Positions 834 through 12,094 are shown, counted from the stretch's first letter. The stretch: DNA of 12,094 bases from Candidatus Iainarchaeum sp. (GCA_030649345.1 JAUSKK010000026.1:1-12094); one strand, 5' to 3'. Numbers and translations: made by a program. The notes: generated from the letters alone by a model not told the origin.

Positions 834-2312
834 ATGAATAACAAAATAATGATTACACTCATTTTAGGAATACTATTACTGGGATGCACTCAACCAGCAA
901 GCAATACAGATACTTCAGGAAATGAAACAACCAATGGAACCGGAACACAAGAAACAAACACAGGAACTTCTTCTACAAGCAGTCAAACTATTTCAGCAGC
1001 TAATTTACCCAGTTATGCTGGAGAAGGATTACGATATGCAGTGCAAGCCAAACCTTTAGCGCAGTTATCTTCAGAAGAAAAAAACACGCGCGAACAAGAA
1101 CTCAGAGAAATGCTTGCAAGATTAAAGGAAACTGTTCCCAGTTCTATTTTAGAAAACTGCAAAAGCAATGGCATTATGCCAGAATTATGGAAACAAACAA
1201 TTACAGCCCAAGAAATGGAGTCTCAAGCAGAAACTGAAAATCCATTTGGATTCACTTCACCCATTTCTGTTTATCAAGATTCAGTTTATGATACAGGAAT
1301 TCACAGCACAGTTGATACAGAATCTGGTTTAGATGGAATTACAAAAAAAGTATGTGAAAGCAGGCGTGCAGGCTTAGGATACTCACAGGAAACAAAAGCA
1401 GAGGCAGCAAGCAGGTTTAAAATTGGCAGAAATCAATGTACGATTTCCCTTCGAACAAAAAATTCGCTCAATACATTTGGTTTTGCCAGTGATAGTTCAA
1501 TAAGTATTGGAGAATATGAAAGTGAACAAAAAGCAATGGCTAGATTTGAATATGCATGGGTGGATCGAATGAAATCAGCCGTAACATACCCTTATGTTGA
1601 ACCACAATTGGTTTATTCAAATGGAATACTTGGATTCAAATCAAGCCATAGTTTCATGGGAATCAAAGGAAAATATATTGTGGCAGTTGATGGAAAGGAA
1701 ATAAATGGAACCGAAGAAATTGTTGAACGAAAAATTCGAAACAGAGAATTGGATTGCTTAGATTATCCAGAAGAAAGAATGCAGTTGGTAAGCGAAGTTT
1801 TAGACTTAGCCAATAATCCTGAAAAATTCAGAGATTATGAAAGCTTTCAAACACCCATTATGAAAGGAAATGCAGGCGAAAAATTAAGCAATAGATTAAT
1901 TGAATTAACTGTAAACAGTTTTGAATACAAAGACAAACTTGGAGCACAAGGACAAATTAAGCCTTATCTAAGCATGGAAACAGAACCGTACAAATTTATT
2001 GTAATGGATATTACTTTAAAAAATTTAGACACTAAACCAGCGGATTGGTTTGATTCAGGCTGGCTTCCTTTACGAGAACATGAGCAATCGCAATCTATGT
2101 ATTTAACCAACAACCAACCAGCATTCAGCCAAGGATGGTATGATAGTGCCTGTTTTACTGATCAGATGGAAATACTTACTGGAGCCATGGATTTAAGTCC
2201 ACTTAATTCAGGAGAAGAGAGAACTGGAAAAGTAGTATGCGAAATAACTAAAGTACCCAATGGAGTCAACTTAATATTTGACCGAAAAACTATCCAAGTA
2301 AATTTGGAGTAA
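834..2312 (+). CDS. Lipoprotein with Thr/Ser/Asn-rich linker and C-terminal DUF4352-like domain; paralog of the upstream ORF
   Basis: ATG at 834 is preceded by GGTGA (825-829). The signal peptide ends in lipobox LLLGC (Cys codon 885-887), followed by TQ and a T/S/N/G-rich low-complexity linker with NxT sequons. The C-terminus reads IELTVNSFEYKDKLG...FIVMDITLKNLDTKP...LSPLNSGEERTGKVVCEI. The central ~300 aa have no family I recognise. Confidence 0.7.
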   Translation: MNNKIMITLILGILLLGCTQPASNTDTSGNETTNGTGTQETNTGTSSTSSQTISAANLPSYAGEGLRYAVQAKPLAQLSSEEKNTREQELREMLARLKETVPSSILENCKSNGIMPELWKQTITAQEMESQAETENPFGFTSPISVYQDSVYDTGIHSTVDTESGLDGITKKVCESRRAGLGYSQETKAEAASRFKIGRNQCTISLRTKNSLNTFGFASDSSISIGEYESEQKAMARFEYAWVDRMKSAVTYPYVEPQLVYSNGILGFKSSHSFMGIKGKYIVAVDGKEINGTEEIVERKIRNRELDCLDYPEERMQLVSEVLDLANNPEKFRDYESFQTPIMKGNAGEKLSNRLIELTVNSFEYKDKLGAQGQIKPYLSMETEPYKFIVMDITLKNLDTKPADWFDSGWLPLREHEQSQSMYLTNNQPAFSQGWYDSACFTDQMEILTGAMDLSPLNSGEERTGKVVCEITKVPNGVNLIFDRKTIQVNLE

Positions 2313-2322
2313 AAAAGATTGT

Positions 2323-2883
2323 ATGAAGAACTCTATTTTAGGAATAGTTTTCATTTTAGTTTTGGGCTGCACACAAGGAGTTCCGGATTTAGGCGGAAGC
2401 ACACAATTTAATGCAGATACATCTGACACAGTCAATGGAAGTGCAGATCAAACTGGAAATGGAACTCTAACTACATCTACTGTAACTGTAGGTGAATTAA
2501 GCGTGCAAAAACCTGGAGATACCTGGATTACGTATTCCGATGAACAGCAAACTGTTTTTCAGAACATAAATGAAACCAATTTTATTATTGTTTCAGAAAA
2601 CAGCGAAGCTTCAATCCAAGATATTTTAACTGTAATAAAAAATGCAGCAAATGAAAGCAATGGAGAATTTGTAATTCAAAAAGAAGAAAATATTGAAGTA
2701 GATGGAGTAACTGGGAAACAAATTGACGTATTGTTTACGGTGGAACCTAAAATTTTATTCAAAACTGTTCTGGTTGAAAAAAATGGAAAAACTTACAAAA
2801 TTGGAACCAGCGCACCAGAAAGTGATCTTGCTTTTTGGGAAACCTTTTGGAAAATATTTTTGCAGAATGCAAAACTGGAATGA
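2323..2883 (+). CDS. Small lipoprotein of unknown function
   Basis: Starts 10 nt after the previous stop. Signal peptide MKNSILGIVFILVLGCTQG has the same GCTQ lipobox context, followed by a T/S/N-rich linker with NGS/NGT sequons. The globular C-terminal ~120 aa are not assignable by eye. Confidence 0.65.
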   Translation: MKNSILGIVFILVLGCTQGVPDLGGSTQFNADTSDTVNGSADQTGNGTLTTSTVTVGELSVQKPGDTWITYSDEQQTVFQNINETNFIIVSENSEASIQDILTVIKNAANESNGEFVIQKEENIEVDGVTGKQIDVLFTVEPKILFKTVLVEKNGKTYKIGTSAPESDLAFWETFWKIFLQNAKLE

Positions 2884-2889
2884 TTAAAT

Positions 2890-3942
2890 ATGAATAAAAA
2901 AATAATTTGGATATTACTATTTTTTGGATTTCTGATTTTGGCTTTAAATGGATTTGCAGACGGCGGCTTTGAACAAAAATGTTTGCCTGGAGGAAATGCC
3001 AGCTTAACCAGTGTACTATGCAGTTTATGCATTACAGAATGTGAAGGAAAATGTTTGGATCAAAAATGGTTGCCGGACATAGATAGTTGTATTGACAATC
3101 CAGATATTTTTAACTTTGATTTCGAAACTGAAGCCTGCACTTGCGGTTTAGGAAGTGGTTCTGGAACCAATCCAACTAGAACCGGAACTGCTGGCGAAAA
3201 CCAATCAACTGGTTGTTCTTGGTTTGATCAAATGATCGCAGAATTTGTAGATGAAGAAATTGTAATCAATGCCAGCGACCGAGGACTTGCCAATTTAGGA
3301 ATTCAAGCCGAAGCTGGACCCAGCGAAAAAACAGCTAGAACTAATTGGAACGGCGTATTAGGACTTGAAACCAAAAAAGCAAGATCTGGAGATATTGTTG
3401 CAGGAAATACAGCAGAATGGGCTGGAAATAAATTTGTTCGAACCATGGCCAATTGGCTGGTGGATACAGGAGTACGGGGAACAGTTGCAAGAGCTATGGT
3501 GTCCGGAAGTGGCGGTGACAATATTTGGAATCCGAATAGCAATAGCGGTCCCAGAACAGAAGCTTTTTTTGGTGAAATTGAAAACATTCAAGGAAACAAT
3601 GAAGTGGATACAATAAAACAAGTGTATGAAAGTATGACTGAAAAAGTTCCAGGATATGGAGTAACTGGCGATAAACCATTAACGCATTATGCAACCTATG
3701 AAGAAATGTTTGTAACAGGTTCTGGAATCTGCAGAGACAAAAGTGGATTGTTAGTCAATGCACTGGAACGAAAAGGAATTGACGCCCAAGTTATTGGAGA
3801 TGCAACCCATATGTGGGTGCGGGTTACTTTAGACGAAGGGGATAATGCCGGAAAAGAATTTGATTTAGATCCAACCTGGTATCAAAACTTTGTACCTTTA
3901 CCTACCCGAAGTGCAGAAAATCGAGCAGAAGGAAACTGTTAA
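2890..3942 (+). CDS. Secreted protein with Cys-rich N-terminal region and C-terminal transglutaminase-like (papain-fold) Cys-His-Asp core
   Basis: Starts 6 nt after the previous stop. Signal peptide is MNKKIIWILLFFGFLILALNGFA. The C-terminal segment GSGICRDKSGLLVNALERKGIDAQVIGDATHMWVRV...EFDLDPTW matches the transglutaminase-like core pattern G.C.d...l....lR..GIpar...g...HaWveV...DPt. By my count the triad is Cys281 (tgc 3730-3732), His307 and Asp327. Confidence 0.7.
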   Translation: MNKKIIWILLFFGFLILALNGFADGGFEQKCLPGGNASLTSVLCSLCITECEGKCLDQKWLPDIDSCIDNPDIFNFDFETEACTCGLGSGSGTNPTRTGTAGENQSTGCSWFDQMIAEFVDEEIVINASDRGLANLGIQAEAGPSEKTARTNWNGVLGLETKKARSGDIVAGNTAEWAGNKFVRTMANWLVDTGVRGTVARAMVSGSGGDNIWNPNSNSGPRTEAFFGEIENIQGNNEVDTIKQVYESMTEKVPGYGVTGDKPLTHYATYEEMFVTGSGICRDKSGLLVNALERKGIDAQVIGDATHMWVRVTLDEGDNAGKEFDLDPTWYQNFVPLPTRSAENRAEGNC

Positions 3943-5402
3943 ACAGCTGTTGGTTTCGATTTGGGTTTAAGCAAATGAGTTCGAATTAAGTGAATAGATA
4001 CTAAAATGATTACTGAACCCAAAACCATGAACATCCAATAATCTTTAAATAAATCGTGAATTCTTAAAGGCCCTTTGTTTTCTGAAACCAATACAATATA
4101 TTCTGAAGGTTTTTCTAAAGGTTGAACTGAAACTGAACGCAGTTTATAGGATTGAATTTTAGGCTGAGTCATATTCAATAAAATTACATTGTCTTTTTTT
4201 TCAACAGTATACAATAAAGGATCAATTGGATTTCCTGCATTGTCTTCTAAAACCATATTGAAATCTCCAGAAGACCAATTAAAGCTGGCCAGCAAAACAT
4301 GAGTTTCATAAGTTGGCTTGAATTCCAATAAAACTTTTTCTGAATCCAAAGGCAGGATTGCATTTGAACTTTCAAATACAATCGTTTGCCCTAAACCTAA
4401 ATGAGCTGCTTTCATGACTGCTAAAATTATTTCATTAGAAGTTGAAGCAAATGCATACGTGCCATGGGTTAGTTCAGCCAATTCGCTTAAAAGCTTGGAA
4501 TCCACTTCATCTTCAAGCATACCTAAACCAATGACATCAATTACAATACCATTATCATCTGCCATTTTTCCGTATTTTTTCAGAACAGCCTCTGAATCCA
4601 AGCCAGTTCCACTACGGCCGTCCGATACAAAAATAATCCGTTTGGATGCAGAAATCCAAATATTGACATCTTCACGTCTTTGAATTTTTTCGAGTTCTTT
4701 AAATGTTTCCTTGAAACCATCGCTGATATCTGTTCCAGAGCTACTGGATATATTCAAAACTTGATGTCTGGCAAATTCTAAATCAAGCGATTCCGAAGAA
4801 GAAAAATACATGGAACTACTGTATCCTGAAAGAAGAATAATACCAGTAAGATAATTGGTGTCAAAAAAATCTTGATACAATTGCTGCAAGGAAAGTAAGC
4901 TTGCCAATCCTTGTTTGGCAAAAGTCAGTTTGGAAATTTCAAAATCTTCAGTTTCTTCGGTTAATTCGCTTCTTCGATTATTTAATTCTTTTCCAGTTTC
5001 ATACAAAGGATGGTTTCGATTTAAATCCAAATTATCGTAATCCACATCATTAAAATCAGTGAGTTCACAAATATCACAACCGGCAAAAAAATGCAATTTA
5101 TCTTGTTCGGTTAAAGAACCTGAAAAATTTTGCAAATCCAAACGAAATTGAATTAGTTTAGCTTGCAGTTCTTCCGGCAATTCAGCCATTTGCACAGGAG
5201 AAGGAAATGCTGGCCAGTCCATGCTTCCAGAAACATCCACAGTCAACATACTTACTGTATTGGAGGGTGCATTAATTTTAGAAATTGTGTCTGAAGTTAA
5301 AACAAAAAAGGCAATCAGTAGCAATAGAAAAAATAAGATTACAAATTCAGCATATTTTTTCAGAAACATAATAAAATAAGGAAATTTCAAGTATTTAATC
5401 AT
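3939..5402 (-). CDS. von Willebrand factor A (MIDAS) domain protein with N- and C-terminal transmembrane anchors
   Basis: Hydrophobic N-terminal anchor FVILFFLLLLIAFFVLT. MIDAS DxSxS appears in LTVDVSGSM, then SGTDISDGF (MIDAS Thr region) and RIIFVSDGRSG (MIDAS Asp). C-terminal TM is WMFMVLGSVIILVSIHLI with a basic tail. Its stop overlaps the ORF4 stop in a shared TTAA (convergent). An alternative start at 5369 (MFLKKYAEF...) gives a more canonical n-region and has ATTAAATA about 28 nt upstream. Confidence 0.75.
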   Translation of the reverse strand: MIKYLKFPYFIMFLKKYAEFVILFFLLLLIAFFVLTSDTISKINAPSNTVSMLTVDVSGSMDWPAFPSPVQMAELPEELQAKLIQFRLDLQNFSGSLTEQDKLHFFAGCDICELTDFNDVDYDNLDLNRNHPLYETGKELNNRRSELTEETEDFEISKLTFAKQGLASLLSLQQLYQDFFDTNYLTGIILLSGYSSSMYFSSSESLDLEFARHQVLNISSSSGTDISDGFKETFKELEKIQRREDVNIWISASKRIIFVSDGRSGTGLDSEAVLKKYGKMADDNGIVIDVIGLGMLEDEVDSKLLSELAELTHGTYAFASTSNEIILAVMKAAHLGLGQTIVFESSNAILPLDSEKVLLEFKPTYETHVLLASFNWSSGDFNMVLEDNAGNPIDPLLYTVEKKDNVILLNMTQPKIQSYKLRSVSVQPLEKPSEYIVLVSENKGPLRIHDLFKDYWMFMVLGSVIILVSIHLIRTHLLKPKSKPTAV

Positions 5403-5501
5403 TCTGATTTATTTAAGCATTCTAATTTCCAGCAAAGCAGGATTGCGTCTTTTAATCTTTTGCAATAAATATATTTGAAAACAACAAAGGCTGTAATTTT
5501 A

Positions 5502-5532
5502 AATGATTGTTGAAAAAAATGATTTAAATTAA
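5502..5532 (+). repeat. Orphan duplicate of the start codon region of the FKBP gene (left copy of a direct repeat)
   Basis: aatgattgttgaaaaaaatgatttaa at 5502-5527 is identical (26/26) to 6715-6740, which contains the FKBP ATG at 6716. With one extra A the match extends through ttaa (5529-5532 versus 6741-6744). As it stands it encodes only MIVEKNDLN-stop. Confidence 0.85.
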
Positions 5533-6425
5533 CCGCTTAATTTTCTTTGTTTAATTGTGCTTAAAGTTTCAAAGTAAGCAGAAATAACATCGGTTAATTC
5601 AAGATTGCGTTTTAAACCCAAGCGATGGACTTCTTGCAAATATACAGTTAACAAGTCCAATGAAATACGTTCATCGGATTTAAAAAAGTGGTCCGTGTTT
5701 TCTATTCTATTAATCTGAATGTTTAACATCAATTTTTTTAGTTCTCCAACTTGAATGGTTTGATCGGAAACCGTGTCATAAACTAATTTTTTCAGTTCTT
5801 GAATTTGGATGACTTCATCTGCAGATTTTTCCACCATGGCATTTTTCAAGTTTTGCAAGCCTAAATCCAAAGACGGGCCGAATTCTGAAAAAATTATACG
5901 CAAGTCATTCAAAAATTCTTGTTTATTAAATTCCGGAACAATGGTTTGAATTTTTTCAACTGGAGCTTTACGAACAATAGTGCGGATCACAGTAACAGGT
6001 ACTTTTCGAATCACAGTACGAATTTTAGTAACTATTCTTGGTTTTGAAACAACTGTTTTTCGAATTACTCTAGTTCGAGTTCGAACCAAAGGAAGGCCTT
6101 TTGAATACGCTTTCCATAAGTTAACAGCTTGATTAAAAGTACGACCTGCGTTAAGTTGACGTCGCATAAAAAGATTGTATTCTGAAAGTTGTTTTTTAGA
6201 TGTTTTCTTTTTTGAAAGTTTCAGTAAATGAACTTTAAGGCGAATCATTTCATTGCTTAAATTAGCAGTTTTTACAGCCACAGTCCTGGCAGTTTTGGCA
6301 GTTTTTTTCTTAGTTGTCGCAATTCCAAGCCTAAGCTTTTTGGATTTATTTTTTTCAACAGAAAGTCCTTTTCTAAGAAAACGTATTTCAGTCTCTAACT
6401 TATTGGTTGGAATTTGAGTCAGCAT
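5529..6425 (-). CDS. Highly basic orphan protein with tandem V/I-R-K/T repeats; possible nucleic-acid-binding protein
   Basis: The long ORF in the track starts at a TTG (caa at 6531-6533), and its first 36 codons look like read-through. The first ATG is at 6425 (MLTQIPTNKLE...). The N-terminal half is Lys/Arg/Thr-rich and includes the repeat tract RTRTRVIRKTVVSKPRIVTKIRTVIRKVPVTVIRTIVRKAPVEKIQTIV (nt 5937-6086). The C-terminal half is neutral to acidic and looks helical. No family recognised. The exact start is uncertain. Confidence 0.5.
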   Translation of the reverse strand: MLTQIPTNKLETEIRFLRKGLSVEKNKSKKLRLGIATTKKKTAKTARTVAVKTANLSNEMIRLKVHLLKLSKKKTSKKQLSEYNLFMRRQLNAGRTFNQAVNLWKAYSKGLPLVRTRTRVIRKTVVSKPRIVTKIRTVIRKVPVTVIRTIVRKAPVEKIQTIVPEFNKQEFLNDLRIIFSEFGPSLDLGLQNLKNAMVEKSADEVIQIQELKKLVYDTVSDQTIQVGELKKLMLNIQINRIENTDHFFKSDERISLDLLTVYLQEVHRLGLKRNLELTDVISAYFETLSTIKQRKLSG

Positions 6426-6702
6426 AATTAATATATTCAAAGTACAATGGTTAAACTCGCGTTTTGCCGAAAATGTGTGTTTAATGCAAGAAACATGAAA
6501 TCGTAAATTAAGAAGATATCTTGTTTGAAACAAATGAACTATTTTTTCTTGCTTTAATACCTAATGAATCACATCAGTTAGATAATTTTCAACTTTTTTT
6601 AGAAATATAGTTCTTAAAAGCTTTCTTTTCAAAATGTAATAATCAAATTCAAAAAAAAAGACTGTGATGTCATGATTTTAAATTTAAAATTTTGATAATT
6701 CT

Positions 6703-6708
6703 GGAGGG
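6703..6708 (+). promoter_or_regulatory. Shine-Dalgarno-like GGAGGG for the FKBP gene
   Basis: GGAGGG lies 7 nt upstream of the ATG at 6716. Comparable GGTGA motifs precede the ATGs at 834 and 11890. Confidence 0.5.
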
Positions 6709-6715
6709 ATTATGA

Positions 6716-7141
6716 ATGATTGTTGAAAAAAATGATTTAATTAAAGTAGAATACAAAGGAACTTTTCCAGATACAAAAGAAATGTTTGATCAAAGCCAAG
6801 GAAGAGGCCCATTAGAGTTTAGGGTGGGCGCTGGACAAATGATTCAAGGATTTGATGAAGCAGTGATTGGAATGAAATTAAATGAAGAAAAAACTGTAGA
6901 AATTCCACCGGAAAAAGCCTATGGAACCAAAGAAAATGCGCCTAGAATTGAAGCCAGTGTAAGCCAAATTGCAGGCACAGGAAAAGCAACTATTGGACAA
7001 AGTGTTTACACGAATACAGGAATGGAAGGAAAAATTATCAAAATCGAAAAAGGAATGGCCACCATAGAATTTGCACATGAATTGGCTGGAAAAACTTTAG
7101 AATTCTGGATTAAAGTAGTGGAAATCAACAAAGGAAAATAA
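6716..7141 (+). CDS. Short FKBP-type peptidyl-prolyl cis-trans isomerase (SlyD/archaeal short-FKBP type)
   Basis: VEYKGTFPDTKEMFDQS...GPLEFRVGAGQMIQGFDEAVIGMKLNEEKTVEIPPEKAYG is followed by a short flap insert and HELAGKTLEFWIKVVEI. This is the canonical FKBP signature. There is no His-rich tail. Both ends of this gene are duplicated elsewhere in the window (see findings). Confidence 0.9.
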   Translation: MIVEKNDLIKVEYKGTFPDTKEMFDQSQGRGPLEFRVGAGQMIQGFDEAVIGMKLNEEKTVEIPPEKAYGTKENAPRIEASVSQIAGTGKATIGQSVYTNTGMEGKIIKIEKGMATIEFAHELAGKTLEFWIKVVEINKGK

Positions 7142-7161
7142 AAGAAAGCTAGTTAACGATT

Positions 7162-8862
7162 TTATTCATTAGTATTAGCATCTTCAGAATTTGCATTTTT
7201 AAGTATAGGCAAAACATTACTGCCATTTTCACCAGCTTCACTGCATGCATTTTGTTTTGTAAAATATTTTTTAAAATTCTCAAAACCAAATTTTTTAATG
7301 CCAGTGTATTTTTTCTTCAAACCAGCTAACTTGGCTTCAGCACTGCTTAAACCAGAAGCCAATTGATTATGAAATATTTGTTTGCCCAGAGTATTGATTT
7401 CTGTACAGTCCATGGAAATATTAATTTTTTCGCATACATCCGCCAAAGGCTCGATTAACCCAGCAACTCCATTGCAAAACTCTTGGACATCTGCAGTCGT
7501 ATTCTTTAGCCAATCCATATACTGTTGGCCAGTATCAATGCCAGCATCTGAAGAACTTGATTCAAATTCATCCAAGGTATCACATATAATTGGAGAAGTA
7601 GCTGGTGTGTATGGCAAGTCATCAATTTCTTTGCCTAAGTCTGCATACGTTTCACCCACAGCAGCCCAAGCTGAATCCAAACCAGAATTGCATTCTTCAA
7701 ATTTTTTTTCCAATTCATTCAAATAAGCATTAATGTCAGCAGCAGAAGTATTCCAGGCACTGCAATCATCACTTGCGCTCGGTACAGGAAAAACAGGCAA
7801 TACAATATCTGTTTCTATAATTTCAGGACACGGCAATCCAGAATTGGTATCTAAGCCATCCTGCAAATTTTCTAAATCCAAAGAGCCTGCTGGAGTACTC
7901 AAATCAGGCACTGTTAAAAAACTCCACCACGGAGTTTCTGTACTAACTTCAGCCAAGGTTTCTGCATTCACTTTACTGACCACAGATATTTCCAATGGAA
8001 TAAACCACAATAATTTAACTTTTACAGTTTTTTCCACAGCATAAATAGGAAGATTATTTTCAACACTTACCGTTATCTTGGTTACTGTTTCATTTTCTGG
8101 AATCTGCTGTTCAAGTACACTATTTAAATTTTGTTCCAATTCCAATTTTTGGCTTCCAACCGAAAAAGAAAGCAAACCATTTTGAGTAACTTCAACAGTT
8201 TCATTCAACACAATATTGATTGAACGAATTAAACCATGCTGTTCTAAACTGACAACTTTTTGATGCACTCCAGCACTTATTTTTAATGTATCCAATCTTT
8301 TACTGAAGTCTTTTTCTTCCAATTCATTGCCTGCAGGCAAATCCAATTCACTTTGTGCATCAGTCTCTGTTTCTTCTTCAGGAAAACTTTGATCTAATTC
8401 AGGCAGATTAACCAGTGTATCAGACACATTTTCGTTGGGTGCATCAAAACCAGTCAGTTCATTTTCAACAGGTGCATTAAAATCATTCATTTCAGGTTCA
8501 ACAATTTCAACAACACTGCAAGCAGTAAAATCGGTATTGCAGCCAGAATTACAGACTTTGGAATTCCAATAAAAGCAACCGCCCATAAAAGGCTTGACTT
8601 TACCTGAAGAATAAAACACATTATTTTCACAATAATCTAAACAACCCAAAGCTTCGCGTTCTTCAACACAGCTTGTTTGCCCGCTGGTGCAGCCATATTC
8701 ACAAACAATTTCTTCTTCAAAAACACAGTCATTGCTGACTGGATCCACTTGGCCTCCGATGTAATGAATATTTTGATAACAATAATCATTGCACCCGCCA
8801 AAACCTGCAAAAACGGAAAGCGAAAATAAAACAAAAAACAAAACTAAAAAAAGTTTTTTCAT
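7162..8862 (-). CDS. Secreted Cys-rich orphan protein with two tandem 6-Cys modules, an acidic linker and a Cys-containing C-terminal domain
   Basis: Signal peptide MKKLFLVLFFVLFSLSVFAGFGGC is followed by two modules with identical spacing C-x3-C-x17-C-x7-C-x3-C-x6-C, then an E/D-rich linker. A central segment ending KVKLLWFIPLEISVVSKVNAETLAEV..TPWWSFL loosely resembles PepSY-like segments I recall from archaeal hypothetical proteins; this is a low-confidence recollection. TTTATATATT lies 20-29 nt upstream of the ATG. Confidence 0.7.
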   Translation of the reverse strand: MKKLFLVLFFVLFSLSVFAGFGGCNDYCYQNIHYIGGQVDPVSNDCVFEEEIVCEYGCTSGQTSCVEEREALGCLDYCENNVFYSSGKVKPFMGGCFYWNSKVCNSGCNTDFTACSVVEIVEPEMNDFNAPVENELTGFDAPNENVSDTLVNLPELDQSFPEEETETDAQSELDLPAGNELEEKDFSKRLDTLKISAGVHQKVVSLEQHGLIRSINIVLNETVEVTQNGLLSFSVGSQKLELEQNLNSVLEQQIPENETVTKITVSVENNLPIYAVEKTVKVKLLWFIPLEISVVSKVNAETLAEVSTETPWWSFLTVPDLSTPAGSLDLENLQDGLDTNSGLPCPEIIETDIVLPVFPVPSASDDCSAWNTSAADINAYLNELEKKFEECNSGLDSAWAAVGETYADLGKEIDDLPYTPATSPIICDTLDEFESSSSDAGIDTGQQYMDWLKNTTADVQEFCNGVAGLIEPLADVCEKINISMDCTEINTLGKQIFHNQLASGLSSAEAKLAGLKKKYTGIKKFGFENFKKYFTKQNACSEAGENGSNVLPILKNANSEDANTNE

Positions 8863-8881
8863 ACCAATATAAAAAATTCAA

Positions 8882-8891
8882 AATATATAAA
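8882..8891 (-). promoter_or_regulatory. TATA-box-like element upstream of the Cys-rich protein gene
   Basis: On the minus strand TTTATATATT spans about -29 to -20 relative to the ATG at 8862. No Shine-Dalgarno motif lies between. This is compatible with an archaeal-type promoter and a leaderless or near-leaderless mRNA. Confidence 0.3.
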
Positions 8892-8906
8892 CCCAATAGG
8901 CATGAT

Positions 8907-9060
8907 TAAGTGAATATACGCAGACATTAACGGAATTCTTTTACACTAGAATCGTGTGAATTAGTTCTAAAGTAAAGCAGGGAGTGTGAAAAAAATGGTT
9001 CTATATGGAGTAACTTTAGAATTCTGGATCAAAATAGTGGAAATAAAAAAAGGAAAATAA
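8907..9060 (+). pseudogene. Chimeric gene remnant: duplicated DUF1761 upstream region and first 8 codons fused in frame to the last 15 codons plus stop of an FKBP gene
   Basis: 8958-9020 aligns to 10379-10442 (DUF1761 upstream region plus ATG) at about 54 of 64 positions by hand, with weaker similarity back to about 8907 versus 10326. 9012-9060 aligns to 7093-7141 (FKBP 3' end including TAA) at 45/49. The two homologies overlap in aactttaga (9012-9020). The resulting mini-ORF at 8995-9060 encodes MVLYGVTLEFWIKIVEIKKGK. Confidence 0.8.
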
Positions 9061-9061
9061 A

Positions 9062-9072
9062 AAAATATATTA
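9062..9072 (+). promoter_or_regulatory. TATA-box-like element upstream of the lipoprotein gene at 9096
   Basis: AAAATATATTA spans about -34 to -24 relative to the ATG at 9096, with no Shine-Dalgarno motif. The geometry matches that of the 8882-8891 element. Confidence 0.3.
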
Positions 9073-9095
9073 ACTCAACCAGCCCAGTATATCTG

Positions 9096-10292
9096 ATGCA
9101 ATTCAAAAATAAATTAAATATCTTGATAACAGTTTTATTTCTTGTTTTCATTCAAGGCTGTACTCAAGACAACACTGTAATTGATTCTGTTGGAACTGAA
9201 AACAAAATAATTTTTATCGGACCTCAACTTCCTTTGGAAGGAATGTTAGGCGATTCTTTTAGTTATTCTTTTTGCAAGCCAGACTTAGAAGAATCAGGAA
9301 CAACGTGCGGAAGTCTAGAACCTGCAACCAATCCAATTGGAGGAAATCCACCGTATTCTTTTGTGTTAGGTTATGGCGCTGGATTATTGCCACCTGGAAT
9401 TAGATTAAATTTAAACGGATTACTAGAAGGCAATCCCTTGTTAGAAGGAAGTTATACTTTTGAAGTTTGCGCCAAAGATGCAATCCAAAACCAAGATTGT
9501 GAAATTGTAAACACGAATATTTCCAAAGCAGTTCTATTGACAGCAGAAATAACTGGGCAAGGAAGTGGATATTTACATATTGAATCTGATCCACCCATTG
9601 TAGATTGCAGTGATGAAACTCGGGCTTGTTATAGTTACAATCAAGGAGCAGAAGTAACTATGACGCCTGTGCCCAATGAAGGTTCTTTTTTTGAAACTTG
9701 GACAGGAGATTGTACTGGAACAGGAAATTGTACATTGATTATGGATTCAAGTAAAGATACAGAAGCAATTTTTTCAATCAATGAACCAGAAATAATTATG
9801 GATAATTCCACTGAAATCATAGAAGATGAAACTGAAATTCCGCCAGTTGAACCTGAACTAACATTAGCTGTTGAACCTACAGTCACAATTACTTCAGCTA
9901 GTTTAACGAATTGCAGGATTGATACCAGTGATTGGGATATGAGATACTGGACTTTGGCTGCAGAAGGAACTGCCAGCATGGATGCAATGGCAACAGGCTC
10001 GTTAAGTTTGACACCAAAAACAATAGACATAGATGACGGAGAAGCAGAATACCATGGAACCTATGAATTCAATTTAGACTGTGGTGTTTGGACACTCAAT
10101 GCTGAACCAGGATATTATGCAGATTGCAGAAGAGAAGAAGGAAATCCAACCAATACAACTTGGAGATTAACATATGAATCTACTGGAACCAATGTTCCCA
10201 AAACAATAATTGCACTTGCGAAAATTCACCCATATCCAAAAGATCAGCCTAAACAATATGCAGAAGCAGAACAAGTTGCAGGAAATTGTTAA
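9096..10292 (+). CDS. Surface lipoprotein with a He_PIG-like putative Ig domain and a divergent InlB B-repeat-like domain
   Basis: Signal peptide LNILITVLFLVFIQGCTQD carries the GCTQ lipobox. GGNPPYSFVLGYGAGLLPPGIRLNLNGLLEGNPLLEGSYTFEVCAKD fits the He_PIG pattern (PY.f.l....LPpGl.l...G.l.G.P...G.y.f.v...D). ITGQGSGYLHIESDPPIVDCSD..CYSYNQGAEVTMTPVPNEGSFFETWTGDCTGTGNCTLIMDSSKDTEAIF fits the bacterial/archaeal B-repeat pattern (G.G.v......C....y..g..v.l.a.p..g..F..W.G.C.g...C.v.m......a.F). The C-terminal ~150 aa are unassigned. Confidence 0.75.
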   Translation: MQFKNKLNILITVLFLVFIQGCTQDNTVIDSVGTENKIIFIGPQLPLEGMLGDSFSYSFCKPDLEESGTTCGSLEPATNPIGGNPPYSFVLGYGAGLLPPGIRLNLNGLLEGNPLLEGSYTFEVCAKDAIQNQDCEIVNTNISKAVLLTAEITGQGSGYLHIESDPPIVDCSDETRACYSYNQGAEVTMTPVPNEGSFFETWTGDCTGTGNCTLIMDSSKDTEAIFSINEPEIIMDNSTEIIEDETEIPPVEPELTLAVEPTVTITSASLTNCRIDTSDWDMRYWTLAAEGTASMDAMATGSLSLTPKTIDIDDGEAEYHGTYEFNLDCGVWTLNAEPGYYADCRREEGNPTNTTWRLTYESTGTNVPKTIIALAKIHPYPKDQPKQYAEAEQVAGNC

Positions 10293-10416
10293 AAAAAATA
10301 AAAATGACTGAAATTCAAAAAACAGTAAGTGAATCTAAACACAAGCCTTAAGGAAATATTTTTATAGAAGAACAATGCGAATTAATTCTAACATAAAATA
10401 TGGAGTGTGGAAAAAA

Positions 10417-10833
10417 ATGGTCTTATATGGAATAACTTTAGATTATGTGGCTGTTTTGGGTGCAGGTATTGCCAGCATGATTGCAGGATTTATTTGGTAC
10501 GGTCCATTGTTCGGAAAACTTTGGATGAAAGAAATGAAAATTGATTCCAAAAACATGGAAGGAATGAAAAAAGGAATGAGTACAAAGTATGCTTTAAGTT
10601 TGGCAGGCTCTTTGGTTATGGCAGTTATTTTAGGACATGTACTTCCCTTAATGCAGGCCATCACTTTAGTGGCAGGATTAACTGCAGGTTTTTGGATGTG
10701 GTTAGGCTTTATTGCACCTGTACAATTCACCGAAGTATTGTTTGGCGGAAAAAGCATGAAATTATTTGCATTAAATACAGGGCATCAGTTAGTTTCAGTT
10801 TTGGTCATGAGTGCAGTTTTGGTTTTAGTTTAA
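10417..10833 (+). CDS. DUF1761 family small integral membrane protein
   Basis: AGIASMIAGFIWYGPLFGKLWMKEM...MWLGFIAP...LFALNTGHQLVSVLVMSAVL matches the DUF1761 signature (GF.WY.P.LFGK.W, WLGF) and has four hydrophobic segments. I prefer the ATG at 10417 over the track start at 10375. In the duplicated copy of this upstream region (8958-8994) the equivalent of codon 2 is TGA and there is a 1-nt indel, so the stretch behaves as non-coding. Confidence 0.8.
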   Translation: MVLYGITLDYVAVLGAGIASMIAGFIWYGPLFGKLWMKEMKIDSKNMEGMKKGMSTKYALSLAGSLVMAVILGHVLPLMQAITLVAGLTAGFWMWLGFIAPVQFTEVLFGGKSMKLFALNTGHQLVSVLVMSAVLVLV

Positions 10834-10860
10834 AAAAATCAAAACTTTTTTTCTTTTTTT
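10832..10860. terminator. Possible bidirectional oligo-T terminator between convergent genes
   Basis: On the plus strand tttttttcttttttt (10846-10860) follows the DUF1761 stop. On the minus strand a T7 run (complement of 10832-10838) follows the DUF475 stop. There is no convincing hairpin. Oligo-T tracts of this kind terminate archaeal transcription. Confidence 0.3.
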
Positions 10861-11866
10861 AATTTTCTTTTGTTTGAATTTCAGGCAATACATTTTGCAA
10901 AGCTTTTTTGGATTTCCAGAAAAAGAATGCAATTACTGCAACTGTAATCACTGGAGAAACATATTGAGGAATATGCATTCCAAAACTGTCCAACAACATA
11001 ATGATTCCTAAAAAGAAAACAGAATACATGGCGCCATTTTTCAAATACTTGTATTTTTTAACGCGCTCAATATTGTGCACAGTAAATTCTCGGACAACAA
11101 AGGCTCCCAAACCGTTTCCTAAAATAATTAAAGGAACAGACAAAGTAAAAGCAAATGCTCCAACAACTCCATCAATGGAAAAAGTTGTGTCGATCACTTC
11201 CAAGTATAAAATTTTGCTCCAGTCACTCATGGGATGACCGCTTAAAAGTTCTTTTTCTTTGGCTTCAGCATTTTCTTTAAATCCATGCGTAATAAAAAAT
11301 GCAGTTGAACCAACCACTGCACCAAAAGCCATCATCGAATTTTTTTGAACCGCCAACCAAACAATGACTGTCAACAAAATAGATACAACTGCAAAAAACC
11401 ATATACTGTATTTTTGAATAACTTCTTCTCCTTTCAAACCATAATGTTTGGGTTCAATAAACAACCAATGCAAAAACAGGAATAGTAAAAAAATTCCTCC
11501 GGCAATCAATAAAATTGGCTTGGAAGCTTCCAAAGATTCTAAAACAATAGGATCTGAGCTAAAGGTTGCAGTCAAAGCCTGAATAGGCCCTAAAGAAGGA
11601 TTGGATAACCAGACAATCATCCAAGGCAATAGGCCGCGGACAGCAAATACTGCAAATAATAAACCCCAAAGCAAAAACCATTTTCTTGCACGAGCACTCA
11701 TAGTTCTTAGTACATCGGCATTAATGACTGCATTGTCAATCGAGGTAATGGTTTCAAATAAAGCCAAACCTAAAACAGTTAAAATAATAGGCCCAAAATC
11801 AAACATATATAAGAAAAACAATGATAAAAGATTTAAAAAGCAAACTTTAGTAATTAAATGATACAA
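10859..11866 (-). CDS. DUF475 (TerC-related) integral membrane protein
   Basis: LFETITSIDNAVINADVLRTMSARARKWFLLWGLLFAVFAVRGLLPWMIV matches the DUF475/TerC-type motif (E..lS.DNA.vNA..L..M...w...FL.wG.l.AvfgmR...P..iv). A second related motif, LEVIDTTFSIDGVVGAFA, occurs in the C-terminal half. The protein has many TM segments. An alternative start at 11806 (MFDFGPIIL) would leave a more plausible 83-nt divergent promoter region shared with sodN. Confidence 0.75.
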   Translation of the reverse strand: MYHLITKVCFLNLLSLFFLYMFDFGPIILTVLGLALFETITSIDNAVINADVLRTMSARARKWFLLWGLLFAVFAVRGLLPWMIVWLSNPSLGPIQALTATFSSDPIVLESLEASKPILLIAGGIFLLFLFLHWLFIEPKHYGLKGEEVIQKYSIWFFAVVSILLTVIVWLAVQKNSMMAFGAVVGSTAFFITHGFKENAEAKEKELLSGHPMSDWSKILYLEVIDTTFSIDGVVGAFAFTLSVPLIILGNGLGAFVVREFTVHNIERVKKYKYLKNGAMYSVFFLGIIMLLDSFGMHIPQYVSPVITVAVIAFFFWKSKKALQNVLPEIQTKEN

Positions 11867-11889
11867 AAATCAGGCAATACGGTGATTGA

Positions 11890-12094
11890 ATGAAAAAAGC
11901 AAATATTTTTGAAAAAATAGTCTTAAAAGGAATGAATTTAATTTCAAAACCAGAAAAGGTTTCTGCCCACTGCGATATCCCATGTGGAATCTATGAAACG
12001 GACAGCATGAAGCAGGCAGCTGAAACAGTATGCAAAATGATGGAAAAAATGAATGAATTGGAAAAAAACAAGCCCTCAGATCCGAAAGCAAAAC
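11890..12094 (+). CDS. sodN: Nickel-containing superoxide dismutase precursor, 5' part (continues beyond the window)
   Basis: Not in the ORF track because no stop falls within the window. Translation from the ATG at 11890 (GGTGA at 11881-11885) gives MKKANIFEKIVLKGMNLISKPEKVSA-HCDIPCGIYETDSMKQAAETVCKMMEKMNEL... The sequence KVSA/HCD[IL]PCG[IV]Y is the NiSOD propeptide cleavage site and nickel-hook motif (Streptomyces SodN: ...KVTVSAHCDLPCGVYDP). The 73-aa minus-strand ORF at 11870-12091 is its shadow. Confidence 0.9.
   Translation, partial: MKKANIFEKIVLKGMNLISKPEKVSAHCDIPCGIYETDSMKQAAETVCKMMEKMNELEKNKPSDPKAK

Follow-up and report, generated by a model that had tools for sequence, protein, structure and literature searches.

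How did the beginning of one gene and the end of another, both of which are also present intact in the same neighborhood, come to be joined in frame within the spacer between two unrelated genes? This question is raised by a contig from a Candidatus Diapherotrites MAG, a DPANN archaeon. We analyzed the contig in its entirety (12,094 nt, 35% GC) and refer to it here as the window. It carries NCBI locus tags Q7S92_034xx and proteins MDO8428244-250, and its coding content consists mostly of secreted proteins or lipoproteins. Between an intact FKBP gene and an intact gene for a DUF1761 membrane protein lie two further genes, Y and Z, and between these two is a segment that copies the head of DUF1761 and the tail of FKBP. 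We consider it probable that two diverged versions of one chromosomal region recombined additively at a microhomology, and that this segment is the scar, without function, of that single event. The features of the locus, in their order along the window, are as follows.

3939-5402, minus strand: gene W
5493-5532, plus strand: stray copy of the FKBP start and of a few bases before it (ATG at 5503, eight codons, then a stop), abutting the 3' end and stop codon of X
5529-6425, minus strand: gene X, encoding a 298-aa basic protein of no known family (Logan gene call)
6716-7141, plus strand: intact gene for an FKBP-type peptidyl-prolyl isomerase (Pfam FKBP_C E=2.5e-20; MDO8428247.1)
7162-8862, minus strand: gene Y, encoding a 566-aa Cys-rich secreted protein with a signal peptide, of no known family
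8907-9062, plus strand: scar between Y and Z (DUF1761 head and FKBP tail)
9096-10292, plus strand: gene Z, encoding a 398-aa lipobox protein with an InlB B-repeat-like domain (Pfam Flg_new_2 E=1.8e-7)
10417-10833, plus strand: intact gene for a DUF1761 membrane protein (Pfam DUF1761 E=6.5e-31)
after DUF1761 in the gene order, minus strand: DUF475/TerC gene

The true start of the DUF1761 gene is the ATG at 10417, as fixed by the lengths of its homologues (136-144 aa). The closest relatives of the FKBP protein come from groundwater Diapherotrites, Iainarchaeum and Micrarchaeota, and its identity to a protein from Rifle groundwater (P0001) is 92% at the amino acid level. Two displaced fragments in the window have this FKBP gene as their parent, namely the tail copy at 9012-9062 and a head copy near 5500.

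Anatomy of the junction between Y and Z

The segment between Y and Z can be divided into the parts listed here, to which we add the parental sequence of its left part.

8907-8994, plus strand: left part of the scar, a copy of the DUF1761 upstream region with a putative promoter and the ribosome-binding stretch GGAGTGTG
8995-9060, plus strand: chimeric mini-ORF of 21 codons, in frame, translating as MVLYGVTLEFWIKIVEIKKGK and then a stop; eight DUF1761 codons are followed by 13 FKBP codons
9012-9020, plus strand: junction microhomology AACTTTAGA, 9 nt, common to FKBP and DUF1761 in the same reading frame
9012-9062, plus strand: right part of the scar, a copy of the FKBP 3' end comprising the last 15 codons, the stop codon and 2 nt
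10326-10442, plus strand: parental DUF1761 upstream region and first eight codons, copied at 8907-9020

In the right part, 9012-9062 is identical to 7093-7143 at 47 of 51 positions (blastn-short E=1.4e-13; also found by the repeat search and by alignment), and the likeness to the FKBP tail ends a few bases beyond the stop codon. The left part contains a core, 8988-9020, that matches 10410-10442 at 30 of 33 positions (blastn E=3e-5). Homology continues upstream of this core, where alignment of the sequence from 8907 with 10326-10416 gives 67 identities in 89 positions together with two indels. Taken alone, the upstream part has a local score of 45, as compared with 19.5 +/- 2.9 for dinucleotide shuffles, not one of which reached that value in 2000 trials.

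The two homologies meet in AACTTTAGA, a 9-mer that occurs at exactly three sites in the window (7093, 9012 and 10434) where 0.2 would be expected. It encodes K-T-L-E in the FKBP tail and I-T-L-D in the DUF1761 head, and when its flanks are included the two parental sequences agree at 15 of 17 positions, TGGAA[A/T]AACTTTAGA[A/T]T. The scar is in other words a novel joint between two mutually non-homologous sequences, made at a microhomology within the short range of about 3-12 nt. The resulting mini-ORF carries no NCBI annotation, the protein accessions of Y and Z being consecutive (MDO8428248/249).

This anatomy agrees closely with an earlier note on the same DNA, which had read the segment as a DUF1761 promoter and head joined in frame to an FKBP tail at a 9-bp microhomology. 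Alignments and translation bear out that structural reading: the last 15 codons and stop of FKBP are present at the scar, the upstream region and first eight codons of DUF1761 are present as well, with homology reaching upstream as far as 8907, and the overlap of the two lies in a 9-mer confined to the three sites given above. The note's 21-codon ORF is likewise open, its ATG falling at 8995, one base before the position that had been implied. The seven coding differences between the copies are those that had been listed, four of them synonymous and three conservative (V/I, N/K and I/V). A self-BLASTN of the window, proposed there as a check, recovers both gene-end copies at the E values already given, and the shuffling result answers the concern that such similarities might be no better than those of shuffled sequence.

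The junction in the assemblies and the neighboring X cassette

We considered whether the joint exists in the genome or was made during assembly. A Logan contig, SRR13727527_211270 (k=31; 5,303 nt), is 100% identical to window positions 6715-12017 and runs unbroken and unbranched across the junction at 9000-9030. In simulation, the De Bruijn graph of the window alone shows no ambiguity at this point. Because a 9-nt overlap cannot make a path in a k=31 graph, the junction was not produced by the k=31 assembly, and the unbroken contig means that every 31-mer across the overlap is present in the reads. It also follows from the unbranched graph that the reads hold neither of two rival paths, one leading from a remnant-type DUF1761 head into the DUF1761 body and the other from the FKBP body into a remnant-type tail. 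The marks of an assembly chimera, a junction that fails to be reproduced or a branch at the junction, were both absent. The evidence that the Y/Z junction is physically real and not an assembly mis-join is strong but indirect.

An artefact would require a mis-join, or chimeric molecules such as those arising in amplification, between co-occurring strains with the arrangements FKBP-Y-DUF1761 and FKBP-Z-DUF1761. The source is a metagenome, and strain heterogeneity is evident at the neighboring X cassette. However, two assemblers yielded identical sequence (in the MAG and in Logan SRR13727527, both assemblies probably being built from the same reads), the k=31 contig passes the junction without a break, and the protein collection holds no full-length FKBP with a remnant-type tail. 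We regard an artificial origin of the junction as highly improbable.

The X cassette carries gene-end copies of its own, being bracketed by two copies of the FKBP head. Positions 5502-5527 are identical to 6715-6740 at all 26 positions (E=3e-8; BLASTN and repeat search). To the left of the stray copy there is no homology to the FKBP upstream region, and the upstream region of the real FKBP gene is homologous to that of the Rifle relative (L002). Three Logan contigs cover the window (1634-5522, 5498-6744 and 6715-12017), and their ends fall exactly at the FKBP-head repeat. Simulated from the window by itself, the k=31 graph is unbroken, and the observed contig ends were reproduced only when a second haplotype was placed in the reads. 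The haplotype modeled in this way has 5493-5527 in common with the window, passes from there straight into the FKBP body (from 6741 on) and has other sequence to the left of 5493. Modeling the X segment as a circle or a tandem array was rejected, as it predicts other contig ends. Judged from the contig ends, the sample seems to be polymorphic for the X cassette, with an X-less haplotype implied, and not for the Y/Z junction. The sequence features of the X scar suggest that it is a second event of the same type as the Y/Z scar, and it would be the younger of the two, given the apparent polymorphism of X and a repeat identity of 100% versus 92%.

Origin of the scar

The two genes on either side of the scar have no similarity to each other in DNA or protein (self-BLASTN and protein-level self-search) and lie on opposite strands. 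Y matches nothing in Pfam, PHROGs or NCBIfam, and its relatives are just two weak, partial matches in JGI metagenomes; the best homologue of Z is 37% identical and has another genomic context. Y is bracketed by two copies of the FKBP tail and Z by two copies of the DUF1761 head. The two genes can be viewed as fillings of one slot, which opens just past the FKBP stop codon and closes about 90 nt short of the DUF1761 ATG. The first filling is Y with its own TATA-like box (7148-8906), and the second is Z with its own TATA-like box (9067-10325). The right-hand boundary of homology, at 8907 and 10326, lies just beyond the TATA-like box of Y in the one case and 34 nt past the stop codon of Z in the other, and the limits of homology coincide with the functional boundaries of the slot. 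The position downstream of FKBP is variable also in the sole close relative, from Rifle (L002/L003; FKBP 92% identical at the amino acid level), where it holds a third, unrelated gene. The protein-level self-search of the window revealed no decayed gene fragments besides the three repeats.

We suggest that Y and Z would have been alternative secreted-protein or lipoprotein genes in this variable slot, Y in an FKBP-Y-DUF1761 version of the region and Z in an FKBP-Z-DUF1761 version. At AACTTTAGA, which would have been present by chance and in the same frame in both parent genes, a single join may have put the DUF1761 head from one of these versions in front of the FKBP tail from the other. The product would be FKBP - Y - [DUF1761 promoter and head / FKBP tail] - Z - DUF1761. 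Since the incoming piece came with a gene end of its own, neither flanking gene was broken and one gene has been gained; the cost of the event would be the scar alone. The join could have been accomplished in any of three ways. In one, a circle closed at the microhomology would have been integrated by a single homologous crossover, either in the DUF1761 region of about 114 nt, if Z was incoming, or in the 49-nt FKBP tail, if Y was. In another, a linear fragment anchored in DUF1761 or FKBP would have undergone homology-facilitated illegitimate recombination (HFIR). The third would be template switching or unequal exchange between two non-identical copies of the chromosome in one cell.

Consistent with an additive event of this kind, a homologous anchor tract lies next to the insert and is duplicated on both of its sides, around Z as well as around Y, and there is neither a dedicated recombinase or transposase nor any element end. 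What speaks against the proposal is that a crossover would have had short and diverged homology to use: one tract spans 49 nt (92%) and the other 114 nt (about 78%), and nowhere do they match exactly for more than 18 nt.

The earlier note had suggested a divergence between functional genes in separate lineages before the copies were joined. Coding differences at the scar number 7 in 65 positions (11%), as compared with 22 in 89 (25%) plus two indels in non-coding sequence (Fisher p=0.024). Of the seven coding changes, four are synonymous, against an expectation of 18-25% (P about 0.03-0.07). These statistics are marginal (p about 0.02-0.07) and rest on 7 coding and about 24 non-coding differences. 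Functional FKBP homologues also carry the residues specific to the remnant (I in WIKIVEI and K in EIKKGK). When L002 serves as outgroup, two of the four tail differences are derived in the FKBP gene and two in the remnant, and therefore the remnant tail has not evolved faster than the FKBP gene. The pattern fits two functional alleles and is suggestive of divergence in separate lineages before joining; this part of the note's proposal stands at that strength, while no parental arrangement has come to light in the databases to carry it further.

The search for such an arrangement covered GTDB representatives, JGI metagenomes and the protein collection, and neither FKBP-Y-DUF1761 nor FKBP-Z-DUF1761 was found there. 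Looking among related genomes for the parents of the FKBP and DUF1761 copies, as the earlier note had proposed, identified no donor or recipient. Apart from a 605-nt contig from Rifle groundwater (92% at the amino acid level), no FKBP homologue exceeds 66% identity, no DUF1761 homologue exceeds 57%, and no Z homologue exceeds 37%, all of the latter being in other contexts. A degenerate DNA pattern for the FKBP tail has no match in JGI metagenomes, and among GTDB representatives the FKBP relatives reach at most 64%, with no DUF1761 nearby and no FKBP-DUF1761 synteny. The parental forms are missing from the databases in that the lineage is not sampled. Since no parental arrangement was found in any database searched, the separate lineages of the two versions are something that we infer. 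The two-to-two split of the tail differences favors neither Y nor Z as the later arrival, and for DUF1761 there is no outgroup. In composition X, Y and Z are native-like (GC and GC3), as expected for exchange among close relatives, yet this is uninformative on foreign origin.

The main rival to a single additive join is a two-step history. A tandem arrangement, FKBP-Y-DUF1761'-...-FKBP'-Z-DUF1761, would first have formed, for example by integration of a large allelic fragment, and the bodies of DUF1761' and FKBP' would then have been removed by a microhomology-mediated deletion between the AACTTTAGA sites. Such a deletion joins the upstream gene's head to the downstream gene's tail and leaves the same end product and the same 9-nt junction. 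Deletions between short direct repeats are moreover the commonest illegitimate event in prokaryotes (PMC2884548), and this history also accounts for copies that resemble diverged functional alleles. Against this, it needs two rare events in place of one, no intermediate was found, and the protein-level self-search gives no other trace of the deleted copies; we think this course of events unlikely. A tandem duplication within one genome, running from the FKBP tail to the DUF1761 head, could likewise have arisen by unequal exchange at AACTTTAGA, after which the content of one unit would have been replaced or differentially lost and the gene ends would have decayed neutrally. The joining of the head of one gene to the tail of the gene before it is the classic signature of such a duplication, and composition shows no sign of foreign DNA. 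However, the units share nothing between the repeats, Y and Z being unrelated and on opposite strands. Neutral decay predicts similar divergence in coding and non-coding sequence, in contrast to the 11% versus 25% plus indels observed, and the remnant tail has no excess of derived changes (2 versus 2). Simple tandem duplication would make the units copies of each other, which Y and Z are not, and since the material on either side of the junction is not duplicated, the event was not a plain tandem duplication. A history of this sort is improbable. The earlier note had called the event tandem-duplication-type or additive, and of these the additive description fits and a strict in-genome tandem duplication is not supported.

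Insertion of site-specific cassettes, by an integrase, transposase or casposase type of mechanism, would turn the repeats into att sites or target duplications, and direct repeats do bracket each of X, Y and Z. Against such a mechanism, domain searches of X, Y, Z and W (Pfam, PHROGs and NCBIfam) gave no recombinase, transposase or integrase, and no gene of the contig has a recombinase or transposase domain. X has neither a family match nor a PDB relative. The window contains no tRNA and no Rfam family, and the repeat search found no terminal inverted repeats around the Y and Z cassettes. The repeats themselves are diverged gene ends (8-25% diverged) and not the identical att cores, often at a tRNA target, that accompany the tyrosine or serine recombinase of an integrative element. 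No repeat pair is related to another; all three are simply ends of genes resident at the locus, and the 9-nt overlap between two of them is not what independent insertions would give. Nor do they resemble the short, fixed-length duplications of a transposon or IS with its transposase and TIRs, as the three duplications differ in length and sequence. The exclusion of a transposon and of a tyrosine-recombinase att site, asserted in the earlier note, is upheld by these observations, and site-specific insertion is the least probable of the explanations considered.

The remaining alternative assigns the segment a function. The copied promoter and ribosome-binding site of DUF1761 might drive or regulate Z, the mini-ORF serving as leader peptide, or the 21-aa peptide might itself be active. 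The copy keeps the SD-like GGAGTGTG, an ATG and an open frame, and the mini-ORF ends 35 nt upstream of the Z start. However, Z has a TATA-like box of its own, AAAAATATATTAA, at 9061-9073, at leaderless distance from the Z ATG, and the aligned box in the copy is degraded (CTTTTACA versus TTTTTATA). No structured RNA or attenuator was detected at the scar (folding z-scores of 0.3 and -0.8 for the two strands), and a promoter and terminator scan, of a bacterial type ill-suited to archaea, returned nothing near it. The peptide would consist of half a beta-strand and half of a membrane-protein N-terminus, two unrelated fragments, and it has no homologue. A functional element is very improbable. We see no sign of function and consider the scar non-functional, although transcription of the mini-ORF could start at the copied promoter.

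Gene gain in DPANN archaea and comparison with known systems

DPANN genomes are thought to evolve chiefly through loss, and to our knowledge direct evidence at the level of junctions for how genes are gained in these archaea is scarce. A single additive join would make the Y/Z scar a natural footprint of the gain of a whole gene from a relative, with no mobile element and no damage to the neighboring genes, in a host-dependent archaeon with a small genome. One or two scars in one MAG change no concept. They do offer a search pattern for population genomics, namely gene-end fragments in intergenic spacers beside strain-variable surface-protein genes.

We considered whether DPANN archaea might repeatedly gain surface genes by additive integration at short homology, with duplication of the ends of flanking housekeeping genes. 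If so, strain-variable surface-protein genes would accumulate side by side with their neighbors undamaged, and 'insertion with long target duplication' would be found in archaea, where it is undocumented. At present we think this generalization rather doubtful. Two such scars lie within 5 kb of each other, and the X cassette is apparently polymorphic, which is one hint of recurrence. Another comes from an unrelated DPANN MAG (L086), in which a gene of the Z family lies between 31-nt perfect direct repeats that correspond to the promoter of its neighbor. A survey of the fetched loci for gene-flanking repeats returned mostly tRNA or paralogue pairs (as in L005) or multicopy intergenic motifs (as in L087), L086 alone being comparable, and it is too little for a general claim.

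Among known systems, the nearest likeness to the proposed mechanism lies in HFIR and Campbell-type single-crossover integration. In an E. coli study of HFIR, most recombinants had a duplication of 109-950 bp of the homologous segment flanking the insert, and these duplications were attributed to a circular molecule integrated via a single crossover (PMC3240628). For these processes see also de Vries & Wackernagel 2002, Prudhomme et al. 2002 and Meier & Wackernagel 2003, as cited in PMC5361080 and PMC2884548. As in those events, the arrangement described here can be explained by one homologous interaction and one illegitimate join at a microhomology of a few bases, by which about 1-2 kb of foreign or allelic DNA is added with no dedicated recombinase, and the insert is flanked by a duplication, here of the DUF1761 region of about 114 nt and of the 49-nt FKBP tail. 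Those events were produced in the laboratory in bacteria, in contrast to the present scar, which arose naturally in a DPANN archaeon. In classical HFIR, recipient DNA is replaced or deleted; here all of it was kept, and the tracts of homology are far shorter, and have diverged further, than experimental anchors.

The locus also resembles insertion with long target duplication, which has been described for bacterial restriction-modification genes (Nobusato et al. 2000; Furuta, Abe & Kobayashi 2010) and for which no archaeal case passed the screen (PMC2853133). Both involve gene-sized inserts with no mobility genes, flanked by direct repeats of more than 30 bp that copy the local target and often overlap gene ends. 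The present inserts, of 1.2-1.9 kb and with repeats of 51 nt (Y), about 114 nt (Z) and 26-37 nt (X), agree with that class in repeat length, insert size and gene content (repeats >30 bp, insert <20 kb, no mobility genes). The class is defined against a genome in which the repeat is present once at an empty site; GTDB representatives, JGI metagenomes and the protein collection yielded no genome close enough for this comparison, and an X-less haplotype is implied by contig ends for X alone. A further difference is that two repeat pairs overlap in one chimeric junction, and this overlap points to a single event between two alleles and not to two independent insertions.

A third parallel is provided by the orphan-module arrays of T6SS, Rhs and CDI systems, for which an HFIR-like displacement has been proposed and in which the alleles of one array come from different strains (PMC5361080, Kirchberger et al. 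2017; see also Jackson et al. 2009, as cited in PMC5361080). In these arrays, as in our proposal, an incoming allelic module comes to lie beside the old one through homology in a conserved gene and an illegitimate join, leaving gene-end fragments and orphan genes in series. There, the 5' part of a toxin gene serves as anchor and immunity function accounts for retention; here the anchors are the housekeeping genes FKBP and DUF1761, and the cassettes encode surface proteins. Finally, junctions of tandem duplications and deletion fusions share with the scar the joining of a downstream-gene head to an upstream-gene tail at a short microhomology, but unlike a tandem duplication the DNA between the repeats is not duplicated. 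The Y/Z scar belongs, in sum, to the known class of illegitimate and additive recombination footprints, and the event that it records is an ordinary one.

A second FKBP start region beside gene X

The start-codon region of the FKBP-type peptidyl-prolyl isomerase gene has a stray second copy, at 5493-5532 as compared with 6709-6745 (26/26 positions exact, E=3e-8). This copy lies directly after the stop of gene X, and as a consequence of this abutment X and the real FKBP promoter are bracketed by FKBP-head repeats.

5493-5532: stray copy of the FKBP head
5529-6425, - strand: gene X, encoding a 298-aa basic protein
6716-7141, + strand: FKBP gene

In Logan, an independent k=31 assembly of SRR13727527, the contig ends around X fall at 5522 / 5498-6744 / 6715. 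The one model that reproduces these ends has an additional haplotype without X in the sample, where the FKBP-head copy continues directly into the FKBP body.

The FKBP gene and its relatives

The only close relative of the FKBP gene, at positions 106-531 of a 605-nt Rifle groundwater contig (L002), differs from it at 51 of 426 nucleotides, with 27 synonymous and 11 non-synonymous codon differences. The differences are unevenly spread: in 42-nt stretches, 6716-6799 and 7010-7093 show 0-3 of them, the centre and tail 8-11, and a clustering this strong was reached in 2/300 max-chi-square permutations. Judged from these aligned sequences, the clustering suggests that the FKBP gene is an intragenic recombination mosaic.

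At 141 aa, the product is without an N-terminal stretch of about 45 aa, made up of signal peptide/lipobox and linker, that is carried by most of the homologues nearest to it (180-190 aa). Only the groundwater protein (P0001) and one other, P0039, share the short form, which is presumably cytoplasmic. In the groundwater contig (L002/L003) FKBP is followed at 532-605 by a different + strand gene, MERKSRLTDFDKMMMRPFI..., which resembles nothing in the window and is a third occupant of the position downstream of FKBP.

Other repeats and a surface-protein family in the window

Within the scar that joins the DUF1761 promoter and head to the FKBP tail, a 9-10-nt inverted repeat (TTCTAAAGT / ACTTTAGAA, 8964-8973 and 9012-9021) couples the copied promoter region to the microhomology site. 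Upstream of the true DUF1761 gene the sequence is TTCTAACAT, and this inverted repeat is missing. The repeat is possibly due to chance, and folding gave no significant signal.

Three consecutive paralogous lipobox proteins stand at the start of the window:

8-817: g1
834-2312: g2
2323-2883: g3

A C-terminal module with recurrent GEE(K/R)TG motifs is common to g1 and g2 (36 aa aligned at 44% identity, E about 1e-4), and g2 and g3 have N-terminal regions in common; on these sequence similarities we regard the three as a local surface-protein family.

Repeats at other DPANN loci

A DPANN ribosomal-protein/RpoN cluster (L087) carries intergenic repeats at 10861-10897, 11379-11499, 11944-12016 and 12300-12389. 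One kind is promoter-like, AATAATATTTTAC...TGAACATTCAAAA, ahead of successive genes; the other contains a hairpin and lies 3' of S9 and RpoN. Both kinds are multicopy intergenic motifs rather than copies of gene ends, and a warning that gene-flanking repeats are easily over-read.

In another DPANN genome (L086; GCA_053536435.1, JAIYHI010000014.1), perfect 31-nt direct repeats, AACAAACTATATTTAATAAATCAATCCAATA, stand at 2508-2538 and 4182-4212, the only two copies in 10 kb. They enclose a RelE/ParE-like fragment and the best homologue (37% identity) of Z, the window's 398-aa lipobox protein, and the second copy, which ends 8 nt before a redoxin gene, is that gene's TATA-like promoter. [quoted passage not shown]
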